A stretch of 63,892 bases of DNA, counting the filler, from Chrysochromulina tobinii (Eukaryota): assembly GCA_001275005.1 (NCBI GenBank). It is 7 parts of 7 records of this genome, joined end to end, with 100 filler letters (N's around TTAATTAATTAA, not from the genome) between each part and the next. Parts side by side here need not be neighbours in the genome. Positions count along the whole stretch, not along the records: positions 37,781 to 57,013 come from JWZX01000509.1; 6 more parts are not named here. One strand, 5' to 3'. A model generated the notes under the pieces. The model ran no database searches, was not told where the DNA came from, and was given only the letters and a program-made list of their open reading frames with translations. Both the position numbers and the translations under genes were made by a program. This document shows positions 3,834 through 57,013 of the stretch, in pieces. The stretch's first letter is position 1. Each line of letters opens with the position of its first letter.

Positions 3834-5131
3834 TCACTCAGCCTTCTTGGTAGTCGTCACCTCCAATTTGGCCTTGTGGCCGTGGGGCTGCTTGCCGTAC
3901 GTGTGCAGCAGGACGCCGCCCACGATCGCGAGGCCCGAGAAGGCGAACGAGGCCTTGAAGGGCTTGGGGAAGAGCAGGAACGAGAGGACAATCGTGAGTA
4001 ACTTACGCGAGTTTGTTGCGACCACCGCCGCCGTCGCGCCCCAGGACCGAGTGAGCCCGATGAAGCAGCAGACGCCTACCCAGCTGCATGTGCCGTACAG
4101 GGTGAGGCGGGCCCAGGGCAGCTCGGCGGGAGGCACGAGCGTGTGCTCTCCTGTGGAGAGGATGGCAGCGACGACGGCGAAGAAGGCGAACCCGTTCGTG
4201 TAAAGCATCACGTGCATTGGCGTCAGGTGCGGGCTCGCTCGCAGCATCCGCTCGGAGAGGAGCACCTGATGAGGAAGGCAATCAGAGGTCATCAGAGGTC
4301 ATCAGAGGTCATCAGAGGTAATCGAGTGGTAACCCTTGGGCACGAGCACCTGATGAGGCAGGCAATCAGAGGGTCATCCGAAGCCATCAGCGGTCATCGG
4401 AGGTCATCAGCCAGCCGGAGGCGAGATCGAGGCGAGATCGAGGCGAGATCGAGGCGAGATCGCACCTGGACCGCGTCGCAGCTCACCGCGAAGAGCAGGA
4501 CGCCCACGCCGAGCGGCGACGAGCCCTTTCCGGTGCCGCCGCCGCCGTGGTCGGCGAGCGTGAAACCGACGAGGCCCGCGCACAGCAGCACCGCCGCCAG
4601 CTGGTCGGCGAGCGTGTACCGCTTGCGCAACAGCAGGGCTCCGAGCGCCATCGTGGGCAGCAGCTTGCACGACTTGACGACCACCTTGATCGGGTACGAG
4701 ACCCAGCGCAGCGCGACATTGCCCGAGACGAGCGACGAGAGCACGAGCAGCGAGATGCGCAGCAGCGTCCACACCGGCACGTTCCTCGGGTCGCCGCCAG
4801 TGATGCACAGCCAGAGGAGCGAGAGGAGCGCGCAGCAGCCGAACTCAAAGGACGAGATGATCAGAGGCAAGCCCTTCATTCCCTCCATGAGCTCCTCCTG
4901 CAAGACGGCGTGCAAGCAGCCAGCGGCGATGAGGATGAAGGGCAGCAGCGGCGTCATCCGTGGATTCATGAGAAACGAGGGTATCTCCAGCTCCGCCACC
5001 GGGGCCGCGGCACTGACCGACGCCTTGCCGTGGGCGCTGGTGGGAGATGCGGCGGCCGCCTTGTGCGGGGACGGAGCCGACATCGGGACGGCGCCGACGT
5101 CGTTATACTTGAGGTTCGCGGCCGTGCACAT
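3834..5131 (-). CDS. SLC35B/UAA-family nucleotide-sugar or PAPS transporter
   Basis: Motifs ALRWVSYPIKVVVKSCKLLPTM and VVATNSRKLLTIVLSFLLFPKPF, with multiple TM helices. One intron at 4266-4465. The start codon is uncertain (ORF open to 5398). Confidence 0.85.
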
Positions 5132-23650: not shown

Positions 23651-24703
23651 AGGCTCAGGTTGTTCTCTAATGCTTACTTGTTCAGGTTGTTGACTGTGAC
23701 TTAATATCGTGGCTCAAAAAAATGGCCCGGTGCATTTTGACATTTGTGATTTGAGCAGACCGCACACGGCCGGCGAGCCCCGGGCGCACCGCCTCACCGC
23801 ACCGCCTTCAAACTTTCGGACAACTCTTTCGAGGACACACGCATGTAGTGACGTGTGAGGTTGTGTCCGAAGACTCCTCCGCCGCCCCCGCCCTCGCCAC
23901 CCCTGTCTACTGTCTCCACCGCCCCCGCCTCGGCGCCCCCAGCTCGACGACCCCTGTTTGAGATTGCGTTGTACGTGTTGGTCCGGGTGTGTTGATTAAG
24001 TTGTGTCGAAGTTGGACACCGTGATAAGTGAAACTGACCCACCTCTCCTGTGGAGAGGAAGAGAATAGAAGGCATAGTGTTGTCCTCAGAAGAACCCAGT
24101 AAGTCGACAAATACCCGCGCAACACTACTCGCGGCGCTTCGCACACGAGAGAACTCCGAAGGGGGACTCCGGAGAAATCCCACAGGGAACGAAGAGTCGA
24201 AGACGCACGCACCGGTAAAAAGACACCGGGGGAGACGGGACACACACAGGCACACGGACACACAGACGAACCTCACAACCATCCCAACCCACCAACGCAC
24301 CCGAGCGACCGCGAGACGACCGAATCAGCGGCCGACTCAACGGCCGCAGCCCCGGAGCCGACCGCTCCCCGCGGCCGACTCGGAGGCTGCCCCCTGCGAA
24401 CCCGACCCAGCCGCCCCCCGCTCCACCGGGGGGAGCCGGACACACTCACACGCCAGACCACACACGAACCCCGGGACGCACACATCGCCACAAACCACCG
24501 CACACCTCTCACACCCGATCAAGCGACGCACGCACCGGTACAACGCGGCTCACACAGATGAAACGACAAGCGGAACGGGGGGATTCAGACGGTCGGGGTG
24601 TACTGTCGGCATTCACAGTCGGCATTCACAGTCGGCATCGGGAGGTCTTCCCGGACGCGTCCCGTCTCGCACGGCTGCCACACTCAACGCGCAATCACCG
24701 AGG

Positions 24704-35890: not shown

Positions 35891-36676
35891 TGTTGAACCC
35901 CACTAATCACCTATGGGTGTTGAACCCCGGCATAATTATACCTGAGTGTTGAACCCCACTAATCACCTATGGGTGTTGAACCCCAGCTTAATTATACCTG
36001 AGCGTTGAACCCCACTGATTACCTATGGGTGTTGAACCCTGGCATAATTATACCTGAGTGTTGAACCCCACTAATCACCTATGGGTGTTGAACCCCAGCT
36101 TAATTATACCTGAGTGTTGAACCCCACTAATTACCTGTGGGTGTTGAACCCCACTTATTTATACCTGAGTGTTGAACCCCACTAATTACCTGTGAGTGTT
36201 GAACCCCACTTATATATACCTGAGTGTTGAACCCCACTAATCACCTGTGGGTGTTGAACCCCACTTATATATACCTGAGTGTTGAACCCCACTAATCACC
36301 TGTGGGTGTTGAACCCTGGCTTAATTATACCTGAGTGTTGAACCCCACTAATCACCTGTGGGTGTTGAACCCTGGCTTAATTATACCTGAGTGTTGAACC
36401 CCACTAATCACCTGTGGGTGTTGAACCCCACATATTTATTCCTGAGCGTTGAACCCCACTGATAACCTATGGGTGTTGAACCCAGGCTTAATTATACCTG
36501 AGTATTGAACCCCACTAATCACCTATGGGTGTTGAACCCCAGCTTAATTATACCTGAGTGTTGAACCCCACTAATTACCTGTGGGTGTTGAACCCCACTT
36601 ATTTATACCTGAGTGTTGAACCCCACTAATTACCTGTGGGTGTTGAACCCCACTTATTTATACCTGAGTGTTGAAC
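35891..36676. repeat. AT-rich minisatellite: about 29 GTGTTGAACCC cores forming about 14 dimeric units of 55-56 bp
   Basis: The core alternates with two linker types, ACTAATYACCTRTGG and (AG/GG/A)CWTAWWTATACCTGA. Confidence 0.95.
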
Positions 36677-38233
36677 TTGCCGCCCCTGCTTCCTTTTTGC
36701 CTTTATTGCCTCCACCGCCCCTCCCCGTCTGTTGAATACCATACACTCTACGGGGTAGACCGTACCCGACTCACTACACGACTCCCTGTTACCGTATTAG
36801 GAAAGGACTCCCAGTATGGAAGGATCGTGTGTGGAATGTGCTGTGAGATGAGTGGCCCGGAGCGGTCCTCACGGCGTCAGTGAATTCAGCAGTCGTGCAC
36901 TGCACCTTACAATTAAGGAGTTCATCGCCCGGCTGATTGTGAGAGCCGATAAAGGCCGGAGAGCCGTCTGGAACTATCGAGTCCATGACGTCTACAACGC
37001 CACTCACGACCGCCGCCACCCCCCTGCCGCTGCCCTCGCCTCCACTGCCCTCGCCGCCTTTGGCACCTCCTCTGCCCTCGCCGCCTCTGGCACCTCCTCT
37101 GCCCTCGCCCCCTTTTCCTAGTGCCGTCCCGCCATCAACACCGCTTGCCTCAGCGCTCCACGCAGTGCTTGTCCTTTTTTCAACACTGCTCATCTCCGCA
37201 CGCGCTGGGCAGTATACGGTAGTCAATATACTTTTACTAAGTTCTCACACACATTTACTCGGTTGCAGCAGCCAGTACCGATGCACGACACATGACGAGA
37301 TACACAAGCCATCCCGAGGATACCGGTAAAAAGACACCGGGGGAGCCGGTAACCCGATAACACACCCAAATTCGATAACAACGGTGCACTATCACCCCGC
37401 TCCTCACGCCCCCCCTTGTGGTGACCCCATGCATATGCACAGGGCTTCGACGCCGCCGAGACGAGAGCTTTCGATGGCGAACCTCTGTGTGTGCAAACGC
37501 GCCGAGGTGGGCAGGAGCCGACTTTTTCGGCAATGGAACCCCACGTGATTCTCGTCGTCTTTGTTCGATCCACGCTCGATGGTACCTGCGAAGCCCACGC
37601 GGATGTCGTCGTCGCAGGTACCATCGAGCTCACACCCATCTTCCCTGGCAGCCAAGTCGACTTTGGCGTACGCATCGGCANNNNNNNNNNNNNNNNNNNN
37701 NNNNNNNNNNNNNNNNNNNNNNNNTTAATTAATTAANNNNNNNNNNNNNNNNNNNNNNNNNNNNNNNNNNNNNNNNNNNNCCGCCCGCCGGCGCTCCGGG
37801 CTCGACAGTACGGGTCGAGGTGTTGCGCCTGCCGCCCTTAACGTTGTTCGCTCTGGAAGACAACCAATATAGCGCAAGCGCTAGAACCCACCAGACTGCA
37901 GACACCTGTGAAAACGTTGGGATATGAACATTTTCATTTTCATGCAGGTCGTTCCGTTTTCAGCACTCTAACGCGTTCTATCTACACACCGCGAAAAAGG
38001 CGCGACGCGAGCGCGACCCATCATGATCATCGTTTGCCAGCAAGTGCCATCCGAAGCAAATCCGAAGATGCAAAAGATCCGAATCCCGCATGCACGTTCT
38101 CTGCCATAGTGCCGCCCACCAGCAAACATCCCAGCCACCGGGCCACCGGGCCACATCTCCGCCATCCATCCGCCATCCATCGGGTCCAACGCCGCCGTTC
38201 ACGCCGCCGTCCTCCAGCCCGTGACGAGCGCAC

Positions 38234-40423
38234 TCAGCACTCCGCCGGCACCGGGCGTGCCACGTCGACGCTCGCGGCCGGATCCTCGACCCCCTCGGCG
38301 TCGCCCACCGGCGCATCATCCGTCCCGGCGTCGCCCACCGGCGCACTAGCAAGGGCGCGCCCCTCCCCATGCGCCCGCCCCCCATGGGCGCCCTTGGGCA
38401 TGCGCGGCGGGCGTGGCTTGGGCTCGGGCGCCCTGTTGGGCTTCTCGATGGCGTGGTTCATCGGGCGCGCGTGCAGCCCCGACCGCGACTTGATGCCTAC
38501 AGAAGGGAAGGCGGTGCAGAAGCCCTCCTCGAGCGTGCCTGATGAGGGAGGCAATCAGCGTATGAGACGAGGGAGGTCATCAGCGACCATCAGTGGCCAG
38601 CAAGTGAGAGGGCATTCGAATGTCCACCTCGAGCGCGCACGCGGGTGGCTTCTTGAGAAGCAATCAGAGGTCATCAGACGCAATCAGAGGTCATCATCAG
38701 AGGCCTTGGGCGTACGCAGGTCCATCGGTGGCTTCTTGTGCCCCTGGCGGTGGGCCTCGCCGCCGGCAGCGCATGCACGGCTCTCGTACGCAGCCACGTC
38801 AACGGCGGCGCCCACGACGGCGCCGCCACTCTCGATCGTGGGCAGCTTGGCGGGAGCGGAGGTGGGGTGGTAGAGTCGGCCGTTGAGGCCGCGGTGCGCC
38901 TTGGCGCCGACAGGTGCGAACGCGAGGTCCTGCAGCTTGTGCAGCTGCGCACGCAGCATCTTGACCTGCACGTCCGCCGAGGAGAGCTTCTCTGCGAGTA
39001 CGGCCGCTCGCGCCTCGGCCGTCTCGGCCCGCTCCGTCGCGTCGCGCGCCGCACGCACGGCTCCCTCGAGCTTCGAACGCTGCGCGACCACAATCTCCGC
39101 GGGCATCGGATTGTTCTCGGCAGCGGGCCGACGTGTGGGCAAAGGAAGGAGCGCCGCCGCCGCACGCTGCGCCACGGCAACTTCCTTTGCCGCGACCTTC
39201 TCCTCGCGCTGCTTGAGCGCGCGCTCAGCCGCCTCGAGCCGGCGCTGCAGCTCGGCCGCGCGCTGTTCCGAGCGCTCGGCCGCCTTCTGCAGCTCGGCCT
39301 CGCGCTGTCCCGAGCGCTCGACCGCCTCGAGCCGGCGCTGCATTTCGGCCGCACGAGACTTGGCGCTGTCACGCTCACTCTCTGCCGCCGCGGCGCGCTT
39401 CTCAGCCTCCGTGGCGGCGGCCTGCGCGGCAGCTGCAGCGGCCTGCACGGTCGCCGCGGTGCGCTCGGCGGCACGCGTGGCGCCCTCGGCGGCGCGCTTA
39501 GCCTCGGTCGCCTCCGCCAGCGCCTCGCGCGCCTCGCTCACCTCCTCGAGTGCGTCGGCCAGGGCGGCCGCTGCGAACTCAATCCCCTTGTCTCCGAGCC
39601 AAGAGACCTGCGCCTTCCGACGCGCGGCCTCAGCGTCGGGCTCTTCGGCGGGGTCCACGTGACCGCCTTGGCCGACGGCGGCGTCCTCGTGGCCGCCTTT
39701 GGGCGGCATCTCGCGCCGGCTCAGCTGGCCGCGCCGCACGGACTGCAGCCTCGTCGCCGCCGCCGCCTGTTCCCGCATCTCGCGACGATCCCGTTGGCCG
39801 CGGCCCGTCGCCTGGACAGCTGCCTGCTGACGCACCTGGCGGCGGTCCTGCTGGCCACGCCGCGCCGCCTGCAGCTTGGTGGCTGCAGCGGACAACTCGT
39901 CGTCATCCGCATCGACGGCGACGACGGCCGGCTTAACTGGCAGTCCATAGGCGTACTCCACCTGCAGAGCCCGACGGCTCTGCTGGCCGCGCCGCGCCGC
40001 CTGCATCATCGTCGCCGCCTCTTCTCTGCGCAGCACCACCAAGGGGCTCTCATCTTCTTCTTCGTCTACGTCGACCTCCTCTTCTGCCGTCGTTGGCGGC
40101 TCGGGTGCAGCTCGCACAGCACCGTTGCGACGAGCTTGCTGTCCACGGCGCACGGCTTGCAGCTTGGTCGCCGCGTCGGCCTGCTCGCGGAGCACTTGGC
40201 GGTCACGCTGACCGCGGCGCACAGCCTGGAGCTTGGTCGCGGCGAAGGCCTGCTCGTCCATCGGCGGCTCGGGTGCAGCTCGCACAGCACCGTTGCGACG
40301 AGCTTGCTGTCCACGGCGCACGGCTTGCAGCTTGGTCGCCGCATCGGCCTGCTCGCGGAGCACTTGGCGGTCACGCTGACCGCGGCGCACAGCCTGGAGC
40401 TTGGTCGCGGCGAAGGCCTCCAT
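38234..40423 (-). CDS. IQ calmodulin-binding repeat protein with long coiled coil
   Basis: About 7 AATKLQAxRRG motifs and an internal tandem duplication. Intron 38539-38715 joins it to the 38234-38538 exon. Confidence 0.8.
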
Positions 40424-40621
40424 GCTGCTACCGTTGATTTTGAAAACTTGAATGGTCGCTGTGCAGACTTGTTGCAGGGCGTTGCATGACAAATTTGGCA
40501 ATCCGCCTGCAAACAAAAAGCCTCCCCTACGAGGCCCTACCGTTGGTACGACGCCTGGCCCAGAGGGCATGCAATTGCGAGTTTCAGAATTTGGGAGCAT
40601 CGTCTCAGAACTCCGATCGTC

Positions 40622-42015
40622 ATGACCTACAGCTCCAACGGTCCACTTCCTGTCAATCTCAGCATGAACTCCGCGGAGTGGGTGCGCAGCATTACAAGGG
40701 GTGCGCTCCACGCTCCAACGTTTGGCCGTCGCCCAATGTCTTGCCAGCATCAGAACCAGCGAGTCTACAAGTGTTTACCAGGTGTGTGCTACGATCAGCG
40801 AATCTCAGCGCCAGAGCTGTGTTCGTGCTGTCCCTCGTGCACCTTCTGCCAGGCTGGAGCCGTCGGCCGATGGACGACGCCGAGTGGAGTGGTGCTCGAA
40901 AGTCTGACGAGTGCTACGGTGCCCTCCTTTCAGTTTGCTTACAATCCTCTGGACGTAGACATGCTACACATTCGACGGAGGCTGGTTGTTGAGCCGGCGC
41001 TGACAGCGCTCTGGAAAAACGTCACACAGACTTGCTGCGCTGCAGGCGGTCTCGTGATCGACATTGGCGCAAATTTTGGATGGTACACGCTCTTTTCGCT
41101 TGCACTCGGCTGCCACGTTGTCGCCTTTGAGCCTGTGTCGGACTATCGCGACGTAGAACGCCTCGGGGCCTTCCTCAATCATGGCTTCGCGCAGCGGTTG
41201 CAAGTCTTCGGCAACGTGGTATTCGATGCGCCAGGCAATTACACTATGGTCGTCCCTCGCGCAGGCATGCACCGAGGCTACCCTCACCACCGAGGCCCTG
41301 CGCAAGCTCAACAAGCGCCCTCTGTGCTGCCTGCGGGCAAGGACGCGCGATCGGCTCAGCCAGTTGCCACGCTCAAGACGCACAGGCGCACCATGCTGGG
41401 GATGGCGGCGATGCTTGGCCCTGGTGGCCAAGCGGCGGTCAAGAACGTGATGACGCTAGGCCCCGCGGGGACGACAACTTACGTCGAGCACGCCCTCTCA
41501 ACTCGAGTGGATGACGTCGTCTCCCCCGAGCAGCACGGGCGCGCCGGGTGTGCATGCTCAAGTCGGACGTCGAAGGACTCGAGCCGCAGTCGCTGCGCAC
41601 GGCGTCACGGCTGCTGTCGCTTGGACTGGTCGAGGCGGTGCAGCTGGAGCTCAATCGCAAAGATTCGCAGAGGTGTGCGAACATTCGAATGCTGCGCGAC
41701 TTGCTCCTGTACGGCTTCCGCCTCATTAAGGTGAAGCATGGCGCGCCATGCTGGGATGAGCGCTGCGTGACGCGAGTTAGGACCTACGAAGAGGACACGA
41801 CGCGCCTGCAGAGCACGCCAGTGAGGCCGGGGCTGCAGCCGGCGCAGTTGAGTCGCACGATCGCGACGGCCCACTTCGAGGCGGCGGACATGTATCGCCG
41901 GGTGTTCCCAGAGTTCAGCTCCAACATCTTGGGCTGGCGCATGCCGGGGTTTGGTGTGGGTGAGCTCGTCAACGTGCATGCGCTGCCGCTGCGAGGACAC
42001 GGCTGCGCGACTTGA
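40622..42015 (+). CDS. FkbM-family SAM-dependent methyltransferase (frameshift near 41545)
   Basis: VIDIGANFGWY and VVAFEP in one frame; MLKSDVEGLE...VQLEL in another frame. Confidence 0.75.
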
Positions 42016-42338
42016 GTGTTGATTGAGTGTGAACTGTGATATCGCCGTGATTCAGGTTGGTGTACGAGTATGCCGTGCTGTGTGTATACGTATACCAACC
42101 TGTCTATTGATTTGTCTTGTGAATGTGGTAATTTTGGTGTGTGCTCCGACGGACGTCTGCGTTGCGTCTCTTAACGAGCGTTTTCGAATAAAACGCGCCG
42201 CGCGACGTTCCGACGTAGACCGATGTGTGAAGTACAGTCCTCGTCAGCCAATCCTCGCCAGTGAGTGAGTGTTCGCCAGTGAGTGAGCTGCCATTGTTGC
42301 CGCATGCACGAGCGAGGGCGACCTACCTAACTAGTAAC

Positions 42339-43472
42339 TTACGTGTGCCCCCCGCCCTCGAGCTTGATAGGCTGCCCACGGCGTGCATGCATCGCAGCGA
42401 GCGGGTCGCCTGCGCGCCGCCGCCTCGCTGTGCTCTCATGCGCCTCCTTGTCGTGCGCCACCCAGCTGGACACAAAGTGGTGGGTGCACACGGCCTCGCG
42501 CGGGCGCGTGCTCTCCTCGTCCTCCTTTCGGTGCTCGGCCGTCACCGGGTGCAAATAGGCTGAGTCGAGCACGACAAGGCCAAGCTGCCGGCGAGCGAGC
42601 TTGAGCGCCATCTCGCTCAGGCTCGCTTCGGCTGGCAGCCGCAGCAGCCGCCGGAGCGCCTCGCGCAGCACCGCGGGCCCAGTTGAGTACAGCACGGCCG
42701 TGTGCCCGCTGCTCAGCGGCGTCGCAGACCGGTTACGTAGCACATCGAAGACTGCACCCCAAAACGGGTGCCCCTTGGCGGAGGCGAAGACCGAATTGCA
42801 TGCACCGCGTGAAAAGTTGTTACCGGCCTTGTAGGAGAGCACGAGCGATGCTCCCTCGAGGAGCGGCCCGAATGGCTTGAAGCACTGCGTGTCGAGGTCC
42901 GCGTACACGCCGCCACGTGCATGCGCGATCACGTATCGAGCCACGTCTGCGCGCTGGATCGGCGACGCATACCCATCGTACATCGGCAGCAGCGACGGGT
43001 ACTCGGACGCAACGAGCGCACGGTTGTCGGCATCCGTCCAGAGCGTGTACGCCCAGCCTTGGTTCTGGTCGCGGAGCGACTTGCGCCAGCGCGGACTGAA
43101 CTGCGCCTTGGGAGGCACTGCATCCTTCCACGTCTGGTGCAGCTGCTCGGGTATCGGCTGCAATGGTCGTCGTCCGAGCCACTGGTTGCGCAGCGCGGCG
43201 AGCCACGGTGCGTCCAGCGAGGAGAGCGACGACTCGTCGGCGCGCTCCCAAAAGCGCGTCTCGGGCGGATACCGCGCATCCAGGTCAAAGTTCTGCAGGA
43301 CACTCAGCGTGGCCGCGGCTGGTGCCGGTGGCGCTGGCTCCTGAGATTCCCATGCGCCTCGTATATGCGGTGCCGTATGGAGGAGCGCCACCGGCTGCGT
43401 CACGTGAGATAGCAACAGGAAATTGACGCAGCCAATAAGGCTCGCGCCGATAACACATAAGCTGGGACGCAT
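42339..43472 (-). CDS. Glycosyltransferase family 32 (DXD; SUR1/OCH1-like)
   Basis: IPEQLHQTWK, RADVARY...GGVYADLD, HPFW, STGP, HHFVSSW; N-terminal anchor. Confidence 0.9.
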   Translation of the reverse strand: MRPSLCVIGASLIGCVNFLLLSHVTQPVALLHTAPHIRGAWESQEPAPPAPAAATLSVLQNFDLDARYPPETRFWERADESSLSSLDAPWLAALRNQWLGRRPLQPIPEQLHQTWKDAVPPKAQFSPRWRKSLRDQNQGWAYTLWTDADNRALVASEYPSLLPMYDGYASPIQRADVARYVIAHARGGVYADLDTQCFKPFGPLLEGASLVLSYKAGNNFSRGACNSVFASAKGHPFWGAVFDVLRNRSATPLSSGHTAVLYSTGPAVLREALRRLLRLPAEASLSEMALKLARRQLGLVVLDSAYLHPVTAEHRKEDEESTRPREAVCTHHFVSSWVAHDKEAHESTARRRRAGDPLAAMHARRGQPIKLEGGGHT

Positions 43473-43615
43473 ACATTAAAGTCAATCAAGACAAGACAAG
43501 TAAAATGTTCATGAGGTGGCACATATTCGTTCGTTCTCTCCCTCCCACGGCAATTTCACACCGCTGACAGTTTGAAGGCAGTTGAGCTGACTGTTTGCCG
43601 TGAATCGTTTCCGAA

Positions 43616-44170
43616 ATGGCGGCGGAACTCGACCCGTGGGCGCCTCCGCCCGACCCGTGGGCTCCCATCGCCGCCAGACGCGAGGAGAATATCGCTGCCA
43701 AGGATGCGGCCAGCGCGGTGAAAATGAATTACGTTAACAAGCTCACCACCGGCTACCACCAAAAGGTGGTGGTCCCGGGACGTCTCCACGGTGCCACTAA
43801 CCACGTGTACCACGTGCACACGGATGCGGAGCGCGAGCACTGGGCGATGATCGCGGAGAAACGTGAGGATGCGCTGAGCTTCCGAGCCGAGGTCCGACGC
43901 GTCTTCAATCTCGCAGACACCGACGGGAGTGGGCAGCTCGACCTCGCTGAGCTGACAGCCGCTCGAAAAGCTATCGGGGATCCTCGAGCGGTGCAGAATG
44001 CGAAGAACATGCTCGATCGTCATGATCACGATGAGTCGGGCACGCTCAACTATGACGAGTTCTTGCAGATGCTGTGGACGACGTACCAAAAGTCACCCGA
44101 GGGCGCCAAGCGCATCCTCAGCACCTATGTGAATCAGATTGGCGAGAGGCGCAACCGGAGAAGCGATTAA
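43616..44170 (+). CDS. Small two-EF-hand protein
   Basis: DTDGSGQLDLAE and DHDESGTLNYDEF. Confidence 0.85.
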   Translation: MAAELDPWAPPPDPWAPIAARREENIAAKDAASAVKMNYVNKLTTGYHQKVVVPGRLHGATNHVYHVHTDAEREHWAMIAEKREDALSFRAEVRRVFNLADTDGSGQLDLAELTAARKAIGDPRAVQNAKNMLDRHDHDESGTLNYDEFLQMLWTTYQKSPEGAKRILSTYVNQIGERRNRRSD

Positions 44171-45323
44171 CAGATAATGTACTGATGCTCCTCCCCAGCT
44201 CGTTAGCCGCGTGCGCAGTAGTGCATGCATGTGATCCGGTCGCGCGCTCGCGAATACGCATCGCATGCCACTGTCGCGGGTGTCATTAGCAGCGCTCTGG
44301 ATCTAATCTGGATCGGGACGTGTGATGTCGGACGCTATGTCACTCCGAAACCGAATCGCCTGCATGATCGCGCCGGCACTGGTGCGTTTCGCGCGCGCGC
44401 GCGCTCTACGTTCTAGCCTCTTTGTAGTCGCATACATCTATTTTCTATGTTTGTATGAAGTTTGAAGAGCTCTTGTGATAATCTTGTGAACGCTGTCGAG
44501 TGTCCGGTGACCGGTCCCATGGACCGGTCCGCGGTCGCGGGTCGGCCGGGGCCCGGGCCGGGGCCGCTGCGCGGCAACATGACGCACGCACAATGTGGCA
44601 AAGACGTGGTCGTGACTCGTGGGCGGCGTGTGGGACCCAGTTGACACACTGACACATTTTGAGCTTTTGACCCCCCCCGCCCCGCACAGACCACAGTGCG
44701 CACCCAAGCCACAGACACACTACGATCTACGTTGTCGGCTTGTCGCGTCAATGAGGTCTCAATGTGTCGCGTGTTTGACTTGAATGCTGCCTCACATCAG
44801 AGCTACGACGCAAGCAGCCTCGTGAGCGCGACAACCCGGTCCCTGCTGAAGCTAGCTAGACCAGGCTGACCTACAATGTATCGCACGACAGAGCGGGGGC
44901 CCTCTTGATTACACACTTCTTGAGTGGATTTAATTACGACCGCGCGCTGGCATCTAACGGCGTGTTGCGTGACGTGCGTCGCGCCGCTGGCGACGAGCGG
45001 GCGTACCTCGGTCGCGTCGGGCGGCATGTGGGGCTTCGACCGGCCACGGGCGGCGTTCATGCACCGCGACGCTGACAAGGACGGCACACCCCCCTTGGTC
45101 GTCAAGGGCTGCAGCGAAGCGGACGTCTACCAGAAGCTGCAGCTCCGCATGCTGTTGTGCTGTGGAGTCGCCCCAGACGATCCGCGCGTGGAGGTCTTGG
45201 AAGATAGGGTCATGGTCCCTGGCCACGAGCGCACGTGCGACGTGCTCCCTGTGGGATACATTGCTGGGGGACGCGTGGTCCGAGACTGACGGCCCAGAGC
45301 AAAAATTGCTGTGCAGCGCTGCG

Positions 45324-48300
45324 ATGCATATGCAAGAGCGCTCAGGCTACTGCAAGGTGCCGCCAACGAGCACAATCAAGATCTCAGTCATGCAGTACCA
45401 AAAGTGGCGCCAGGGACACCGAGGCAAGCGAGGTCGCAACTTCTTGAACGACGACGTGGAGCCCGGCTTTGACGCTCTGCTAGCTGACGAGCTCGCGGCC
45501 GCGTCGACGGAGGTGCGCGACCTGTTCGAGGCGTGCTCGGCGGCAGAGCCCCATCGACTGCGCGAGCTCCTTGATGCCAAAGCGGACGTCAACCTGGCTC
45601 TGCATGAGACGGCGACTCCTCTGACGACCGTGATACAGGCGAGCACGCGCGGCAGCGCTTCGGATCCGCTCGCATGCATCCGCTTGCTGCTGGAGGCGAA
45701 AGCACGGCCAGACGAAGCCGTCTTCGCTTCCGACAGCGGCACGCCGATTGGGGTTGCCACTCCACTCATCTTGGCGTGCGCCAAGGAGGACCACGCGCTG
45801 GTCGATCTGCTTCTCGAGCACCATGCGGCGCCCGACAGGACAGGGACCCTCAGCGACGGATGCCACCCGATGACTCCACTGATGGTCGCTGCCAGCCGAG
45901 GCGCGGTGGAGGTCGCTGAGTCCTTGCTTCGTGCAGGTGACCACTGATGGCCACTGATGACCGCTGATGACCTCTGATGACCTCTGATGACCACTGATGA
46001 CCGCTGATGACCACTGATGGCCGCTGATGACCTCTGATGGCCACTGATGACCACTGATGACCTCTGAGTGCGCCGAGTCCTTGGTTCGTGCAGGTCATCC
46101 GCTGCATGCGATCATCACCGAGGCGTCGCCCAGCTACCACGGCGATGATGCGATGAGCTTCACGATGAAGAATGCGCCGCCGAGCCTCATGCCGGCGATG
46201 GTGAAGCTGCTGCTGAGTGCGAGCCGCTCCCAGGATCCTGAGGGCTTCAACGCGCGGCACACCTCTGATATGCTGCAGTGCAGCCAATTTCTGGCCGAAG
46301 ACCGAGCCCTGATGGGGCTGCAGCTGCTTCTCGATGCCAAGGTGGACGTGAACACGCGCGTCTCGTGTGGGACGAGGTTGATGAACCCAAGCACCGGCCA
46401 CTTGACCCTCGTCGATTCAGTCATAGCATTGTGCGTCTGCTCACAGCCGTGCGCCCCTCCCCTCCCCTCCCTGCATGGGAGCCTAGCACGGCGCCAATGT
46501 CCTCATCTGTGCCTCCCCGCCCGCCGCGCAGTGCCATGACCCGCAAGAAGACATCCGCGTCGATCATCGAGCTACTCCTGAGGGCAGGCGCTGATCCTCA
46601 GGCCGCAATGAGTGCGATGCTCATGGGGCGCGAATATGACCACCAAACTGTCCGGCTGGTGCAGGACGCGTTCCAAATGATGAGCTACGCTGGGAAGCGC
46701 GTGCAGGTGCGCACGATGGTCAGTCGGCCGGAGCTCGTCGGCGCGCGCGGCAGAGTGCTCAAGAGCCGGAGCTGGCAGGGCATCGGCCGCCTAGCAGTGC
46801 TGCTCGAGGGGGAAAGCGTGCCGCTCTCGCTGCGAGTGTCGGCATTGCACTTTGGCGATGAGCCTCTGCCTTTCCTCGAGGGCCCCAACAACCCGGAGCG
46901 CGCTGAGGCAGCGCTGCGTTCCGATGACCAGGGGGCCGATACCGTTGACAACGAATGGGGCCTTCTCGCGCAACCTGAGGCCACCCCTCAGTCGTCGGAT
47001 TCCATGCCTCTTCAAAAGCTGGATCATGACGAGATCATGGCAAGATCGGAACGAGATCGAGACGAGATTACGCCTCTTGAAAACCTGGATCTAGACGAGA
47101 TCATTTGGCTGCTCGGTCCGCAGGATCAGCAGATTGCGCACGATTCGCAGGACCTGCACGTGCTCGCGTCGAGCAGCGACCTCAGCGACGTCGAGGATCG
47201 CATGAGGCGTGCGTGCAGGGATGGCGACATCGCCACGATGCGGGCACTCATCCAGCTCGCCCCTTCGGTCGTCTTTGAAAGCCACGAGAGGTCCCTCCTC
47301 GGAGAGGCCGTGTGCTCCTCGAAGAACACTGTGGAATGCATCCAGCTGCTGCTCGAGACCAAAGCTTCGCCAAGGTCGTCGTCGTCGTCGTCCAAGGAGC
47401 CCTCGCCCGTCTTCTATGCCACGATGATGGGGAAGCTCGAGGCGATCGAGCTGCTGCTCAAGGCGGGGGCCTCCTACGACGATCCGTGCCAAGGGCAGAC
47501 GAACATGTCGGCACTGGTCGGGCTCATGGGGATGATGCATGCATCTGCTGGGTGCCGCAGCGAGCAGATGGAGGCCCAGTTGCAGTGTATCGAGGCCGTC
47601 CTGCTCACGGCCTATGCGCAGCCCTCGCGGGAGATTGTGCGAGCTTGCCTCTTCAACATCTGGTGTGAGCGCGGCACCACTGGTTTGGTTCGGTTAATGC
47701 TCGGACAGAAAATGGATCCGAACCTTGACTACCAGTCCGCCGAGCCCGACGCCGGGGCCCGTCCCCTCTTCCCCGCGCGCGGCCACATAGACTGGACGCC
47801 GCTCATGCGCGCGTGCGCGGGAAAGCACCACGGCTGCGTCAAGATGCTCCTTGAGGCTGCCGCCAACCTGACGACAGCTTGTACCACGGATGCAGGGCCG
47901 AAGACGCCGATGCAGATGGCGCAGTCTCAGAACGACACCGACTGTATTCGGCTGCTGATCAGCATGCTGCAGCGGGGCCAGAAGCTCGTGGGGCAGACCG
48001 TCCAGGTCGTCGATGACTTCAAGCAAGCCCTCACCGGCAGGCTGGCGGAAGTCATCGAGTTCGATCCCAGAGAAGGCCTGTGCCGAGTCTCCGTCGTCGA
48101 AGAGGGCTCGCGCCGAATCTACCTCATTCCTCCTGCGAAGCTGCAAGCGTACACCGACGAGAGCGAAGTGGATGCTTACGAGCCGTCTAGCCCGCACTCG
48201 AATCCCTCCAGCCCGCGCCAGCCCGACCCGAGCAACAACGAGGACGACCGAGTAGCCCTGGTACCTGCAGTCAGCCGTGCGTCGTGTAGGCTGATGGAAG

Positions 48301-51300
48301 GCGTGAACGCCCTCAGTCTTCACAGGGTGCTGGAGTCGCTCGCCCTTGGCGCCAATGTGAACGGGATCTGGAATCTGGATCGTGGGCCTGTCACGCCGTT
48401 GCGCCTGGCCTCCGAGGCCATGGATGCTCCGAGGCAAGAGGTTGCTCATCCGTTGATGCTGCTCGTCGCCACGCTCCTGGCTGCACGCGCGGATCCGCAG
48501 CTGACCCTTGAGGATGGCTGGAGCTTCGACAAATGGGCCCAGGGCGATCCCAAACGTAATGAAATGCTCGTCAAGATTTATGACGCGGCGGGCAGAGCGC
48601 TCTCAGCCCCTCTGATTGCCGAAGGGGACGAGCTTGGCCTCCTCGAGACGCTCCGTGCCATGGAGCAGGACAAGAATGTGGCCCTCCTCCGTGCCCTCAC
48701 TCAGTACGTAGAGGATCCCGAGAAGAACGAGGGCAGCTGCGAGTCGGACCATTACCTTTCGGTGTGCAGCTTGCTCATCTCGGGCGCGAATCCAAACGCA
48801 GAGGTGGAGACGCGAGAGGGATGCCTCACGCCGCTCTTCATTGCGTTCCATTGCTACAACCCCAAGTCCGCGCCCGGCTCGGAGCTCTTTGCTGTGCGGC
48901 TGCTGCTTGCCGTCAAGGCCGATCCCTTTGCACACGTGACGGATAGGTGGGTGAGCGGAGAGCCTTGGACGCTTGAATTAGCCGCCAACAGCTCCGGCTG
49001 GCGCAATCTGGCGGGCTTGATTGATATGCTCGACCTGCGCGAGCTCGCCGACGCTGATGATTGGATTGAGTTCGATGGCTGCGACATCGCCACGTGGTCG
49101 GACGCTGCGATCTGGCTGCTTAGGAAGGCGGAGGACCCTCGGAATACAGACACGACAGGGAAGATGAGCTCGATGAGGCGGCACATTGATGAGCTGATGG
49201 CCCAAATGCGTATCCCCAAGTCTTACTTCGCTAAAGTCGAAGCGCTGGGCTCCTTGGTGCAAGCTCTCGTGGATCGCATTCGTCACGATTTGTCCACCGC
49301 GGCGCCGCGGCGGTCGTCTGGGGAGAATGACTCCGAAGTGGATGTGTATCAGGACGCGCAGGAAGAGAATGGGCAGTCGGGCTCTCCCGAGCAAGACGAG
49401 CCGAGGCTCCAGGAGCATCACCTTCGAGCGCTCGGAGCCATCCTGTGTCATTGCGCCGAAGCGGACGCGAGCTCGGCGGTGCTGCAGCTCCTGGACCACT
49501 CTGGCTTCGCGAATTCGTCTGGCTTCGAGCTTGTCCTCCAGACCGCGGACGAGAACACCGCGCTTTGGTACGCAGCCTCGAATGGGAACCGAGCAATGAC
49601 TGAGAAGCTCATCGGCCACGGCGCCCACGTCAACTTCCGCAAGTCCAGAGGATTAGGGTTGCAGCAGCATGAGGGCCCATCGGTCCTCGGGATTGCGTGC
49701 CAGGAGGGTCATCGTGGCTGTGCTGAGCTGCTGCTCGAGGCGCTCGCCCACGTGGATGGGGGCGAGTGGTATCCGGAGAAGCAGGTCTGGCATACGTTCA
49801 TCACGCCGCTGATGTTTGCATGCGACTCAGGCCATTGCTTGTGCGTTCGCCTCCTTTTGGAGCACAATGCGAGCGCGGACCTTCGGCTTCACGGTGTGGA
49901 GAAGGGTGGGCCGGAGCTCGCAATCGAGTTCGCCGAAGCCGCTGAGGAGTCGAACGATAGCAAGCTGTGCATCAAGATGATGCAGACGCACGGCGCGAAG
50001 GAGGAGATGCTTCAACGGCAACGGAAGGGCCAATCATCGACCAGCTTGCTCGAGGAGCTCGGCGGCAAGGGGAAGCGGCTGGTGGTCAAGAACCAGAGAG
50101 CGCCCAAGGACCCGAAGCTCGAGTCGGAGCTGCTTCACTGGGCCATTCGGCATGGGGACTTGGCCTTCGTGTCCAGGTGGCTGCGTGATGGCGGCCGAGA
50201 TCGCATCGATGAGCGCTGCCTCGACGGGTACACGCCGCTCGAGGTGGCCTCGCGACAGAGCCTGATGGAGCCGTATGGCGACGAGCGCTGCGCGAGCCAC
50301 ATGCTGGTCTCGAAGCTGCTCAAGTCCAAAGCCAATCCCAACACGCCGGATGGTCCGCTCGGCTGCTTCCCACTCCTGCTCGCGGCGACACAGGGCAGTC
50401 CCTTCTCTGTCGACATCTTGCTGGCTGCGGGCGCGGATGGCGCGCGCAAGACGCGCTTCGACCGTTGTGCGGCAGAGCACGCGCTCGCGGCAGGCCGTAC
50501 GACGATCGCTCATCTGATCCTCAATCACGCGTACCACGAGCAATGGCACAAGCGCGAGAGCAAAGGTCGAATGCTGCGCGCGCAGCGGGCCGCCATAGAG
50601 GTGGTCACTGGCTTCATTCAGACGATCGTGCAGGCGCACACAAGCCAAGCGAGCACCGACCATGCAAGCGTCGACGTGGACGATGGGCTCACGCTGCCGC
50701 AGCTCGAGCAGCAGCATGCAAGTGCTCACCACGGCGCCCCCAGCCTGCTCGAGCAGCTCGAGCAGCTCCTCGACGTGCACGGGGACGCGCTGCGTGGTAC
50801 GGACACCCTCGCGCAACGTACCCTGGCGCAGGCCATCGGCGTACGGGACGAGCTGCGGCGAGAGCAGAGCCAGTGCAGCGCCGAGAAGGCGGAGCGAACC
50901 CTTCGGGAAGCGTGCCGGGCAGCGACGGACGCCGCGTCGGGTGTGCCTGTCAAGGCGCGGTACGAGACGTTACGGCAGGCGATTCACATTCACACAAAGG
51001 CCCTCGAGGACACAGCCAAGGCGGGCGTGCTCAAGGAGGCGCGAAAGGTGCGCGAGCAGCTCGCCGAAGAGAGTCGCAGGGCCGCCAAGCGGGACGCGGA
51101 GAGCGCGAAGCGGGAGCAGAAGCGTCGCGACGAAGCCGCGCGCGCCGAGGCGGAGGCCGAGGCGGAGGCGATGGAGGAGATGCAACGGGAGGCTCGAGAG
51201 GAAGCGCAGAAGCGGCGTGGTGAGGCGGCACGCGCCGCGGCGGAGGCCGCCCGCGCCGAACTAGAGGAACTCAAGGCGGAGACGGAGGAGATGCCGCGAA

Positions 51301-51435
51301 AGGCGCGCGAGCAGGCACAGCAGGCACAGCAGGCACAGCAGGCGCAGCAGGTTCAACAAGATGAAGAAGAGCTCGCTGCGCGTGTGGCGGCGGCGGCGGC
51401 AGCGCCGTCGGCGGCAGCGGCGCCGTCTGTGGCAG

Positions 51436-51466
<31 letters not shown>

Positions 51467-54400
51467 GGCGGACTCACGGCCCGAACCGAGCACGAAGGCC
51501 AAGAAAAAGCGGCGTAGCAGTGGCGGCAGCGCAAGCGGAGCGGCGGCGGGAATGGCGGCGGCGGCGGAGACCGAGCCACGTGTTTCAGCGGCGGAGGCTC
51601 GCCAGAGGGAGAGGCTCGCCGAGATGGAGGCTGAGGATGAGCGCCAGCTGCTCGCGGCCATCGAGGCCAGCTTGCTCGAGCAGCAGCAAGCTGGCGGCCC
51701 GCCATCACCTTCGCCCGCGCCCGAGCCCACGCCCGAGACGGCGCCGGAGCCCGCGCCCATCACGGCGTCCAGCTTGCCTCGGGAGGCGACGCCCAACACG
51801 GCGCCCATGGTGGAGGCGAAGGCGCCCAGCACGGCGCCCAGCACGGCGCTCAAGGCCGACAAGATGGCCGAGAGGAAGGAGGCCAAGCACGCCATCAAAG
51901 AGGACGCTAAGATGGAGGCCAAGGACGGAACGACAAGCGATCTCTCGAGCGATCTCCCGCCCTCGCTGAGCGTTGCCGTGGGCTCTTCCGAGCGCTCGGC
52001 ATGGGTGACGAGCCGGTCGTTTGTAGGCCCCTTGATCGTCGAGTCGCAATCGCGGCCGGGCCACGTGCGTCGCGACCTGTGCATCCGCAAGGAGGGCCTC
52101 GCCTTGATCGCGGGCACCAACCAGAGGCGCCTCAAGGACATCGAGGACGCGACCGGCTGTTCCATATTTGTCCTCGATCGGGAGGGGCCGCCGCCCGGCT
52201 GCGGCCCGAACGAGCGCGCCCTCGTGCTCGTCGGCAGCTCGGACGGTGTCGAGTTCGCCACTCTGATGCTCTACGATGCCGACGCGGCGGGGTCCGACTC
52301 GGCGCTCAACTCGGCGCTCATCCTCGGACCGCTCGTGCCAGAGGTTTCGTCAACGGCCACAGAGGTTTCGTCAACGACTACAGAGGTTTCGTCAACGACC
52401 ACAGAGGTTTCGTCAACGGCCGCAGAGGTTTCGTCAACGGCCACGCCGTCGGCCGCCGCGCCGCAGGTCGAGTCTGTGCAGTCGTTGCAGCCGTTGCAGC
52501 CGTTGCAGCCGTTGCAGCCGGTGGACTCGTCGGAGCCTTCGGCCACAGCAAAGTTCGAGCGCGCGAAGAGCCTCGACGAGCGCGCCGTCGTGGGCGCCCG
52601 TCCGGAGAAGCCATCGCCTCTCGCCCTGGGCCCGGCGATGGCGCCCACGACGGCGCCCACGCTCGCGCCCACGACGGCGCCCACGACGGCGCCGGCTGTG
52701 GAAGCGCCGATGGCCGCGGTCCGCCCCTATAAGCAGCAGCCCTGCCACTTCTTCGCGAGGGGACTGTGCAAGAACGGGGGGCTCTGCCCCTTCTTGCATG
52801 GCGAGGCCGACCCTCGACTGACCGACCCGCGCCTCATCAGTCCTCGGGCCGCGTCTCAGAAGAAGGATGTGCGCCGCACGTCTCTGCCGGCGGGTGCGCC
52901 GTCGCCTTCTCCGCCGCCACCGCCACCGCTCCCGCCAGCTACTGAGGCACACGTGACCTCGCCGCCGCCGCCGCCGCCGCTGCGGCTGCCGCCAATCGCC
53001 GGGGCAGATGCAGCGCCGTCTCGGGCAGATGCGGCGCCGTCTCCTCCTCCTCCTCCTCCGCCGCCGCCGCTGCTGCCAGCTACTGAGGCGGCCGATGTAG
53101 TTCCATCTCCCCCGTGGTCTGCTATGGCCGCAGCGGCCTCGAGCAAGGGCACTGCCCGCGGGCGTGGCGGGCGTGGCGGGCGTGGCTCGCGCGGCGGTAC
53201 GCCCGCCACGACGCCCCAGGACGGCACGCCCGCCACGACGCCCCTGGACGGCACGCCCGCCACGACGCCCCACAGCGGCCCGCTCGCCGCAGACGGCCTC
53301 TCCGGGGCGTCGGGTGTGCTTGGGCCGCTCGACACGGCGCTCGACTTGCTGCCGCCTGCAGCGAGCGCGAGCAGCCCCCCACCCGGTCTGTCGATCAACG
53401 GCGCGCTCTGGCCGTCGTCAGCAGGGCCACTCGCAGCAGGGCCATTCACAGCAGGGTCATTCACAGCAGGACCATTCACAGCAGGACCATTCACAGCAGG
53501 ACCTCAGAGCCACCCGCCGCTCGAGACGACGCTCTCGCTCCGTCCGCTCGAGATGAGCGCCGAGATGAGCACGTCCCAGACGACGCTGCGCGGGCTACGG
53601 AATCTGGGCAAGACGTGCTATCTCAACGCGTGCCTACAGAGCCTCCTCGCAACCGAGGCGGTGCGCGTGCACTTCCTCGCGAAGCAGGTTTACACGGCGG
53701 CGAAAGGGTTCGAAGTGCCCACGACGGCGCCCCTCGGCAACGGGTTGCGGCCGTCGGTGCCCACGACGGCGCCCAGGGTCCGCGCGGAGGGAGAGCTGAC
53801 CAGCGCCATGCGCAGCTTCGTGCGCGAGATGCACGGGCCGCTGACCGCGTCGTCCGAGGCCGTGCGTCCCGTCGGACTGTTGCGCGCCGTCTCGACGCGC
53901 CACTCCCGATTTGGGCAGCGGACGGAGCAGGACTCCCATGAGGTGCTTCGTCAATTGCTCGAGGGCATCCGGTCCGAGGAGGTCTGATTGCGTCTGATTG
54001 CGTCTGATTGCGTCTGATTGCACCCCTCATCAGGTGCTTCGTCAATTGCTCGAGGGCATCCGGTCCGAGGAGGTCGAACGACTCAAGGGTGAGGCGGCGG
54101 AGGCGACGGCAGCGGTGTCGCCTCTGACGAAGCCCAAGGCACTACCGAATTTGGCACTGCCGCCCATCGAGCCCGATCCGTGCACGATCATCGATGAGGT
54201 CTTCAGCGGCGAGCTGCGATCGACGATCGTCTGCTGCACCTGCGGGAGCGTCTCGTGCGCGCATGAACCCTTCCTCGACCTTTCCCTGCCGATGCCGCGC
54301 CGCGGCCGGCTCGACGCGCAAGATGGGCCCCAGAGCCCGGGAAGCCCCAGAAGCCCCGGAAGCCCCGGAAGCCCCGGAAGCCCCGGCAGCCCAGCCGAGG

Positions 54401-55493
54401 ACACATTCGCCGACACGCCCGCCGTCGCGAGCGGCAGCGGCGGCGGCGCCCGGGGCTTCGTGGGCGGCAGCCCCGGCCGGGGCGGGGGCAGCAGCGGCGG
54501 CGGGCGCGAGGGCAGTGGCTCGGCAGATCTCAATCTCGATCTCGGATCGGCAGATCTCACCGACGAGGTGCTCGCACAGCTGCCGAGCGTCCTCACCTCC
54601 AAGCCTTCACAGCTGCACCTGGGATCGTGCCTCGCTGCCTTTTTCGCGCCGGAGACCCTGCGCGGCGACGATGCGTATGACTGTGACGTCTGCAGCAAGC
54701 GCGCGGCAGACGCAGCTGTGAAGGCCTCCTCTGCCAAGGAGGCCAAGGCAGCCGGCAAGACGGACAAGGCACACGGCGCCGGCGCCCACGGCGGCGCCAA
54801 GGGTGAGAGGGAGCTGGCGCAGCCGCCGTCTCCCAGGCCGAAGCAGCCCGGGCTGAAATGGCTTCAGGTCAACGGACTGCCACGTGTCCTCTGATGGCCT
54901 CTGATGACCTCTGATGGCCTCTGATGACCTCTGATGTCCTCTGATGGCCTCCCTCATCAGGTCAACGGACTGCCACGTGTCCTCTGATGGCCTCTGATGA
55001 CCTCTGGTGGCCTCTGATGGCCTCCCTCATCAGGTCAACGGACTGCCACGTGTCCTCTGATGGCCTCTGATGACCTCTGATGGCCTCTGATGGCCTCCCT
55101 CATCAGGTCAACGGACTGCCACGTGTCCTCACGCTACACCTCAAGCGTTTCCGAACCACGGGTCGGAAGGTGCATAAGCTGTATGAGCACGTGCCCTTCC
55201 CGCTCGTGCTCGACTTTTCGTCCTTTGCATGCCAGCCTGGTGAGCCCGTCAAGCACTACACGCAGCTCAGCGACGGCGTGGCGCGCCCGCCGTCCGCGGC
55301 GCATCTGAGCTTGTACGCGGTCGTCGAGCACCAGGGCACCTTTGTTGGTGGTCACTACGTCGCCTTCGTGAAGAACGGGGGCGCGTGGTACCGCATGAAC
55401 GACAGCGTCGTCACGCACGTGAGTGAGGCGACCGTGCTCGAGGCCAAGGCCTTCATGCTCTTCTATCAGCAGACGCCTTCGCCGACCGCCTGA
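45324..55493 (+). CDS. Giant ankyrin-repeat / coiled-coil / UIM / KH / CCCH-zinc-finger / USP deubiquitinase
   Basis: Many TPLxxA...LLxAxA ankyrin repeats; EDERQLLAAIEASL; KH-like IAGTNQRRLKDIEDATGCSI; CHFFARGLCKNGGLCPFLH; GLRNLGKTCYLN, EQDSHE, HQG...GGHY...ND. Introns 45937-46093, 46431-46531, 53943-54033, 54868-55106. The 5' end is uncertain (may begin near 45026). Confidence 0.8.
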
Positions 55494-55750
55494 CAGCGCC
55501 GACGCGGTTGCGCCGGCAGTGCACGATTCAAGATAGCAGCGGTCAAGCAGTGCACGATTCACCGACTGTGCGGTGAGCTTAAATACATTTCCAGCGACTC
55601 GTGGAGAGCCGCCTTGATCCTATGACCGGTTGATGAGCATGTTCTTCTGTTCCCTGAATTTGTTTCCAAAAGGATAGCGCGTTTAACACTCCGCTCTCCG
55701 ATTCATAAACTAAACAGACCCAGTACGCAGTAGCCGGTACACTGGTACTC

Positions 55751-55945
55751 AATCCCGCCCGGTAATATAGGGCAGCGAGCACCAGAGATCACACTGTGTG
55801 CTGGGAGAGACCGACCTCACTAGCGAAATTGAGTAGCCCGAGCGAGCGAGTACTCAGTACTTGTGTTGACCGAGGGGAGCGGAGCCGTCCGTCGAGACGG
55901 CGGTGGAGTGAGCGTGGGGGGACCGCGACGAAACTGAACTGAACT
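55751..55945 (+). mobile_element. Second, internally deleted copy of the element at 6258-6732
   Basis: Reverse-complement match that lacks about 270 bp (6309-6581 of the other copy); ends GAAACTGAACTGAACT. Confidence 0.6.
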
Positions 55946-56473
55946 CAGTACTGCTGCGTCGACACTCACAGTGTTCAGTTCAAAGGAACAAATAAGCCTA
56001 TGACGGACGTAGTATGAAGTATGCGAGGTATATAACCATGAGCGAGGGTGGCAGCGGAGCACCAGGTCGTGTCGAACGAGCCCTGAGAGCATCGCTGCGA
56101 TGACGGGGGTACCAGACAAGGCTGTTGAAAGCGTTAGGTCGGATTGGGGGGCTATTTTTGGTTGCGGGGTGCGATGATTACGCAAAAGTTGGCCATTTAG
56201 TTGGCCGGCCACATGTCGGAAAAATGGCCAGTCGGCCCGCGCCGTGCCCGATGTCGGCAAAGGCAGACGCGGAGGCGGCGGCGGCGTTGCGCGAGCTCGG
56301 CGCGACGCTGAAGGCGTCGATGAACGCGCCGAAGCTGCACACGCGGAACGAAATGTACTTCGCAGGTAGTACGAATATGAGCTTAGGTCCCTTCCGGCAA
56401 CTCGTGCCCAGCTACAAGCTGCGGCACTGGTCGAGGACAAGGTGGAGGCTTTGGTGGAAGTGAAACGAAACCG

Positions 56474-57013
56474 ATGGCAGAGGCACCCTTTTCCCAGGTT
56501 ATGGAGCGTGAGGCCAAGCAGGGACCGGTGGCCACGGGCAAGCTCGCCTGTGGTGGACCCAAGGCGCTCGTCCAGTCGCAAAATGAGGCCGAGGCGTTCG
56601 GTCAGAGGTTCTGGACGCAATATGAGAAGAACAGTAAGTGGAAGTCACGCGACGGCGTGATCTACTTCGAGGCGGAGCGGATGTACAAAGAGATGCTTGA
56701 GGGGCACGACGGCAGCCCCGCACCCGTGCGGCTCCTTCGCCTCTCATGGCTGCTCGAGAAGGCCCGCCGCCGTGCGGTGCTGCCACGGCGGCAGGAGCTC
56801 CCGGAGGAAGCATTCCTTTCGGAGGCGGAGGTGCGCGCACTCCCGCGCGGGCACGTGGGAAGGGCTTGTGAGACCTGGGTCAGCATATTGATTCCCGGGA
56901 GGTCGCCGAACCTCATCGGCGCAACCTGGCGGCGCGCCAATGCCGCCGCCGCGCATGAAGTTCTGGAACGAACTGAGCAGAAGCAACAGTAGCAGCAGCT
57001 GGGACGTGTGCGA
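56474..57013 (+). CDS. Fragment of a protein with the algal 'VRLL..SWL...LPRRQELPEEAF' N-terminal motif, next to a gap
   Basis: The motif is one I recall from expanded algal protein families; exon structure is unresolved. Confidence 0.4.

Follow-up and report, generated by a model that had tools for sequence, protein, structure and literature searches.

The window analysed here, the whole stretch of 63,892 nucleotides from Chrysochromulina tobinii (assembly GCA_001275005.1, seven joined parts), contains within the part taken from JWZX01000509.1 (positions 37,781 to 57,013) a USP gene whose last intron is built of three GT-AG units placed end to end. The features of this locus are as follows.

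54034..54867, + strand: USP upstream exon, which ends TGG CTT CAG (WLQ) and is followed by a phase-0 intron; found in RNA contigs X11 records 11 and 13
54868..54960, + strand: unit 1 (93 nt), with the real donor GT, a 24-nt copy of the start of the next exon at 54868-54891, six CTGAT words and the acceptor CCTCCCTCATCAG
54961..55033, + strand: unit 2 (73 nt), opening at an internal AG-GT junction, with the same 24-nt head as unit 1, three CTGAT words, one CTGGT variant and the acceptor
55034..55106, + strand: unit 3 (73 nt), with the same 24-nt head as units 1 and 2, four CTGAT words and an acceptor, the one used for joining to the exon in the mRNA
55107..55130, + strand: true exon start, 24 nt that are copied into every unit, the final bases CCTC matching the repeat (microhomology of 4)
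55107..55493, + strand: last USP exon, 128 codons and a stop, encoding the C-terminal half of USP with the His box (GHY)
53943..54033, + strand: single-unit intron of the same USP gene, with a 42-nt copy of the start of its next exon, four CTGAT words and the acceptor CCCCTCATCAG

The last USP intron thus measures 239 nt, divided into units of 93, 73 and 73 nt that share one layout: 24 nt of the following exon, then CTGAT-bearing 10-nt repeats, then the CCTCCCTCATCAG acceptor, with all three units ending in CTCCCTCATCAG. The unit heads are identical to the adjacent exon start at 24 of 24 nucleotides, a match whose chance, calculated from base composition for a single 24-mer exon copy, is about 8e-15, and it is this copy that supplies the donor. 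Units 1, 2 and 3 contain six, three and four CTGAT words, the last of which lies 17 nt before the acceptor end; we take CTGAT to fit the CTRAY branch-point consensus. At 54960/54961 and 55033/55034, AG and GT are directly juxtaposed within the intron. The original prediction, made from the sequence alone, had placed the units and their 24-nt exon-start heads at exactly these coordinates and had described the internal junctions as zero-length exons, both of which our analysis bears out. Its description of the repeat as (CTGATGRCCT)n holds in general but the repeat is not perfect: a GTCCT variant occurs once in unit 1 and a CTGGTG variant once in unit 2. Units 2 and 3 are copies of unit 1, and the gene's other intron carries a different repeat and is not the source of the unit 1 tail. 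A stwintron reading was rejected because the units abut and no splice signal is split.

The exons that flank this intron match Pfam UCH positions 1-104 and 146-254, the last exon with an E-value of 1.7e-25 against positions 146-254. The last exon is 97% identical to P0001, which reads WLQVNGLPRVLTLHLKRF unbroken. Six donor/acceptor pairings can be made from the units, and five of them give VNGLPRVL-stop; only 54868 to 55106 leads into the His-box exon, confirming the earlier claim that partial unit removal abolishes the USP His box. The acceptor end at 55087-55106 (+ strand) folds as a 7-pair hairpin, CTGATG with CATCAG (-6.1 kcal/mol); acceptor and repeat word are reverse complements of one another, which may hint at a fold-back origin. 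All four runs compared with this locus contain a diverged second copy of the USP segment at 54161-54307, with 14-15 differences, which is probably a paralogue.

Several other features of the window were recorded. Upstream of the stack, 46269-53987 (+ strand) is an open frame of 2572 codons that contains ankyrin repeats, a KH domain, a CCCH finger and the USP Cys box, and represents either one giant protein or neighbouring genes that happen to be in frame. Another USP gene in the window is 98% identical to P0108, a protein whose 90%-identity cluster includes a Chrysochromulina parva member, and its best named match outside this cluster is from Prymnesium parvum (43%), which places the window in C. 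parva or a near relative. A protease exon at 1312-1455 (+ strand) reads INPGNNGGP; trypsin-like Deg/HtrA proteases carry their serine in GNSGG, and judged by this motif the copy may be inactive. At 24038-27544 (+ strand) a pyridine-nucleotide oxidoreductase domain is fused to AIRS and AIRS_C domains, presumably a selenophosphate-synthetase-like fusion, and this frame continues through a CTGAT-type intron whose end is at 25678. At 4266-4465 (- strand), two unlike introns of a UAA-family transporter gene (116 and 84 nt) adjoin directly, without an intervening exon; the frame is kept only by joining to the last acceptor, and the region has no usable RNA cover in four of four runs. Finally, about 14 copies of a 56-nt unit occupy a lower-GC stretch at 35891-36676.

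The run data consist of contigs assembled with 31-letter words; 16 of 20 contain the stretch, six of these being RNA, and we compared positions 53400-55700 with two RNA and two DNA runs. RNA contig X11 record 13 joins 54863 to 55103 (4 nt, TCAG, are shared), which corresponds to removal of the full 239 nt, and since this joint shares 28 nt, fewer than the 31-letter word, it can be real. The X11 record 11 contig skips the single-unit intron 53943-54033, but this joint is weaker evidence because the 44-nt repeat there exceeds the contig word length. Among the contigs of an independent RNA run, X14 record 20 covers 54955-55057, including an internal CATCAG-GT junction, and so supports at least two units, while DNA contigs X1 record 4 and X5 record 26 pass from the exon into unit 1. 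Summed depth on the repeat tract is thousands of times that of the flanks and gives no copy number here. The same stack in another assembly (L096) has flanks identical to those in the window (219 nt upstream, 276 nt downstream); it has four units, with unit 3 occurring twice, as against three in the window, which makes the unit count uncertain. The USP stack itself is real, and there is a considerable chance, a little short of even, that the exact count of three is wrong.

We scanned metagenomes with the pattern acceptor-GT-(10-40 nt)-repeat and obtained 119 stretches, which reduced to 46 distinct loci. The pattern required GT at one internal junction, and that GT therefore carries no weight as evidence of selection. 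In 34 of the 46 loci, the USP locus included as L096, the first 9-44 nt of an internal unit are those of the next exon; L006, where the chain was misread, and L071, where a gapped copy was missed, are both counted as lacking the exon copy. Ten of the 34 have three to ten acceptors. Across the 33 loci measured (L014 was left out), the heads have a median of 22 nt (range 9-44) and the units span 58-128 nt. All 46 loci share the 3′ end and the repeats, the 5′ end being a locus-specific exon copy. As many as eight repetitions occur in one stack (L044), and head lengths can differ within a stack (21 and 42 nt in L082). Single-unit members also exist, among them the 53943-54033 intron (42 nt), one flanking L017 (42 nt) and one flanking L019 (22 nt, with a GC donor). 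Scans of viral contigs returned 0 and 1 matches, and L001 was not used. The number of units varies between assemblies in arrays of near-identical units and is constant in stacks of diverged units, which argues that the stack is real and that the number three is uncertain.

These loci retain footprints of how units form. Microhomology at the junction between head and repeat averages 3.2 nt, compared with 0.9 nt at other exon positions, in the 21 loci that could be scored (12 of 33 were dropped for want of an anchor), and it reaches at least 3 nt in 13 of the 21 against 11% at other exon positions. In 23 of 33 loci the tail of the last unit resembles the intron preceding it in the same locus more closely than it does the median other locus; it does not in the remaining 10, so that a single local-copy route cannot explain all stacks. 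Two neighbouring introns in L006 (150-1000), both stacked, have a rare tail variant in common, which suggests copying within the gene. Acceptors outside the scan pattern (14 rows, reduced to 12 by dropping L008 and L057 as pattern-chosen) are followed by GT in 8 of 12 and by GC in 4 of 12, against a background of 17%, and an upstream exon-start copy scoring at least 10 accompanies 6 of the 12 but none of 182 swapped controls. Exon starts fit GTRNG in 22 of 33 cases, compared with 57 of 231 other GT sites. A preceding AG is lacking at many first donors, as in L002, L003, L040, L044 and L082, which implies an imported acceptor and a donor provided by the target. In the flanks of the 34 loci, repeat words lie almost exclusively on the strand of the stack (135 versus 1 on the opposite strand).

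Duplications in the mirror-image arrangement, with an exon end, donor and repeats copied into the 5′ part of the intron, were observed at 1425-1530 and 2790-2990 (+ strand). As these lie across donors, boundary-spanning duplication appears to be general in this window. In an ankyrin gene, at 45930-46095 (+ strand), two near-copies of GAGTCCTTG..TCGTGCAG-GT enclose twelve CTGAT words, another case of boundary duplication.

A relative with about 71% identity (P0011, P0104) reads WLQV unbroken, making the last USP intron probably lineage-specific; this comparison suggests an empty site at the position of the stack in the relative, whose ORFs appear to enter introns elsewhere. The P0104 ORF starts MQVLRQ at the position of the 53943 intron, so some intron positions may be old and only refreshed, and this start, which speaks against a simple account of birth, hints that the 53943 position could be older than its 42-nt exon-copy head. 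No empty allele of the USP stack locus itself was seen, and the birth of the intron has therefore not been caught in the act.

From the unit build, the net splice, the family and the junction microhomology, all directly observed, we arrive at a reading that we favour with some confidence: the 239-nt stack is a head-to-tail series of GT-AG mini-introns that is fully removed, and it likely arose by the copying of the 3′ end of an earlier intron behind a duplicated exon segment that begins with GT, followed, again likely, by tandem duplication of the resulting unit. The microhomology, the sharing of tails with the preceding intron and the sense-only orientation of the repeats together point to templated duplication at a GT/GC donor and then tandem growth. 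At birth, DNA synthesis would have paused 24 nt into the exon sequence, switched by way of a few matching bases (CCTC) onto the CTGAT-repeat tract of another intron, copied this tract through its acceptor, and then gone back 24 nt to the AG-GT site. The target would thereby give the donor, and the copied piece the branch-point-like CTGAT words and the acceptor, leaving the protein unchanged. Stacking would follow from a repetition of this slip, now onto the tract next to it, or from unequal crossing-over between units; either event would add whole units.

With regard to splicing, every unit would be an intron of normal size and any removal would rebuild an identical junction, so that removal in any order, or in one long splice, would give the same mRNA. 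The units share a prefix of 46-59 nt and a suffix of 23-26 nt, and partial products share at least 50 nt (46 + 4) with unspliced RNA, which contigs of 31-letter words cannot separate. We put the chance that at least part of the transcripts undergo stepwise removal at about even; such removal would be a tolerated by-product, not a selected device. It had been proposed that the cell must either skip two perfect decoy acceptors or splice recursively. The premise stands, as partial removal destroys the USP domain, but this choice misses a third route, in which internal units are removed first and in any order, and at the stack at 2396-2729, whose partial products could be distinguished, no intermediate was listed in four RNA runs of low depth. 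It also overlooks that the structure belongs to a recurring family, and the origin of this family is better supported than recursion.

The strongest alternative differs from our preferred reading in the splicing route only. In one-step splicing the first donor pairs with the last acceptor, the internal AG-GT junctions are ignored and the stack is inert repeat DNA. The nine RNA-supported introns of the window measure 91-334 nt, a range that accommodates 239 nt. We compared 600-4900 with four of the six RNA runs. A 334-nt stack in a protease gene (2396-2729, + strand) has six acceptor-like sites, of which three precede CT and the other three the exon start, and here only the full-length joint was listed, in two of the four RNA runs (X11 at depth 3.4, X12 at depth 7.9), with all six sites removed. 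No partial joint was among the nine joints listed (four RNA runs, contigs, depth 3-15); since contigs drop rare forms and depth is low, this is weak evidence against recursion. CT follows internal acceptors at 2518, 2630 and 2707 in the window and at six of nine internal sites in L072, where a donor cannot be rebuilt, and in L084 and L020 the internal donors have moved away from the consensus. RNA moreover uses the first donors in preference to the decoy copies at 1456 and 2823, and in flies the exon junction complex blocks rebuilt splice sites (PMC8184009). Against one-step splicing, the USP units do not differ in their donor or acceptor sequences, which leaves no evident reason to prefer the far acceptor, and fungal intron definition pairs the nearest sites (PMC6616335). 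One-step splicing is a serious contender, only somewhat less probable than its converse.

As to origin, the main rival is an RNA template, which fits the same footprints. A reverse transcriptase, of non-LTR type or acting in RNA-guided repair, would prime at a nicked GT/GC site and copy intron RNA or the gene's own pre-mRNA, adding the acceptor and part of the repeats together with a target duplication of 9-44 nt, and repeated insertion at one site would give stacks. This route would account for a 3′ end that is fixed, for a 5′ end that is ragged and shows microhomology, for a duplication of variable length, and for the unequal heads in L082 (21, 42 nt); non-LTR-derived introners are also on record (PMC12130899). 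The strict sense orientation agrees with it too, but is equally expected from selection for splicing, and near-identical adjacent units are more simply explained by tandem duplication. On balance we regard an RNA template as rather unlikely. Much the same weight, well below even, attaches to a broader proposal in which the stacks form a self-feeding intron factory without a transposase: 3′ ends, possibly RNA-copied, would enter GT/GC sites, each acceptor would have a fresh target behind it, and the abutting mini-introns of 60-130 nt would be recursively spliced.

Obligate and selected recursive splicing, with removal 5′ to 3′ through conserved zero-length exons that tunes USP output, is less probable still. 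Each first splice does restore the exact original donor context, and L014 retains GT at its internal junction though its exon starts with TT. RNA runs also contain intron-holding contigs, which are more likely unspliced RNA than DNA because the silent stretch 3624-3767 has zero depth in four of four RNA runs; retention, however, is common in the haptophyte Emiliania in any case (PMC4028052). No intermediate was seen, at the USP locus, where contigs cannot resolve one, or at 2396-2729, where depth is low. Internal sites at other loci have decayed or lack a donor, the number of units varies between assemblies, and known ratchet points are conserved and situated in long introns (PMC8605326, PMC8184009). 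The CT-flanked internal acceptors and drifting donors in particular make obligate, selected recursion unlikely.

A pure assembly artefact, in which the assembler unrolled a single unit repeatedly, would fit the differing counts (three units in the window and four in L096; 5, 2, 3 and 4 acceptors in L036, L050, L061 and L075; 3 and 4 in L109 and L115) but is scarcely credible and was rejected, as units 1 and 2 differ in length and sequence, the internal junction recurs in an independent run (X14 record 20) and diverged stacks keep their count (L004 group, 8 of 8 assemblies; L009, 5 of 5; L040, 5 of 5).

None of the papers listed in our literature searches describes these introns. The introner family lists of PMC9860276 and PMC12130899 could contain this family; the genome paper for C. 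tobin mentions introns once in its available text (PMC4580454), and the part of PMC12480563 covered held nothing relevant to them. The closest known system is the intron gain in potato RdRp by tandem duplication across an intron-exon boundary (PMC4974935). That is one case, compared with 34 of 46 sampled loci here; unlike in potato, the donor here is the first base of the exon and no exon is left between units, and a repeat tract supplies the junction, with up to eight repetitions (L044). In the Rogers model, a tandem duplication of an AGGT exon segment (PMC3443670), and in Daphnia intron gain at staggered breaks (PMC4202315), there is likewise a direct repeat at the intron ends and the coding sequence is unchanged, but here the acceptor does not come from the duplicated exon and a shared, stereotyped tail is brought in.

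The introners of Symbiodinium and Polarella (classes 4/5 and 6/8/10) show the same division of labour between target and insert, with a carried 3′ site, a 5′ site from the target duplication and many related introns per genome (10.1101/2020.10.14.339549; PMC9860276). Their duplications are fixed at 4 or 8 nt, with inverted ends in Symbiodinium, whereas those described here are of 9-44 nt (median 22), of low complexity and stacked, and not of a fixed, family-specific length; a classic fixed-length introner was rejected on this ground, and of inverted structures only an internal hairpin, at the acceptor, was seen. The introner published for Chrysochromulina is the opposite of the present stacks, having a 4-bp duplication and carrying the 5′ site (PMC9860276). 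That survey, according to its preprint, removed low-complexity families, so introns of this kind would be missed.

An acceptor that directly abuts a donor is also found at ratchet points and abutting U2 introns (PMC8605326, PMC8184009, PMC6616335) and at the dual-specific AGGT sites of the UBC tandem repeat (PMC10809524); in these systems, as here, either route leads to the same end product. The known ratchet points are conserved sites within introns tens of kilobases long, and their cryptic exon is followed by a donor of its own; the units here, in contrast, are of 58-128 nt, young and variable. The USP host intron has 239 nt, is absent from the ~71% relative as judged by protein read-through, and varies in unit number. 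By analogy, then, the stack can be said to behave like a donor-from-target introner that stacks: a variant of duplication- or introner-type intron gain in which the stacking is new.

To our knowledge, few recent intron gains have a source that can still be seen, and duplication across a boundary has been described in isolated instances. In this cultured alga its footprint can be read at dozens of loci. In practical terms, repeats of this kind can lead short-read aligners and gene callers to place junctions wrongly. Because single, double and many-unit states coexist, two old questions become testable: whether new introns are copied from DNA or from RNA, and how a spliceosome that handles short introns picks among identical acceptors.
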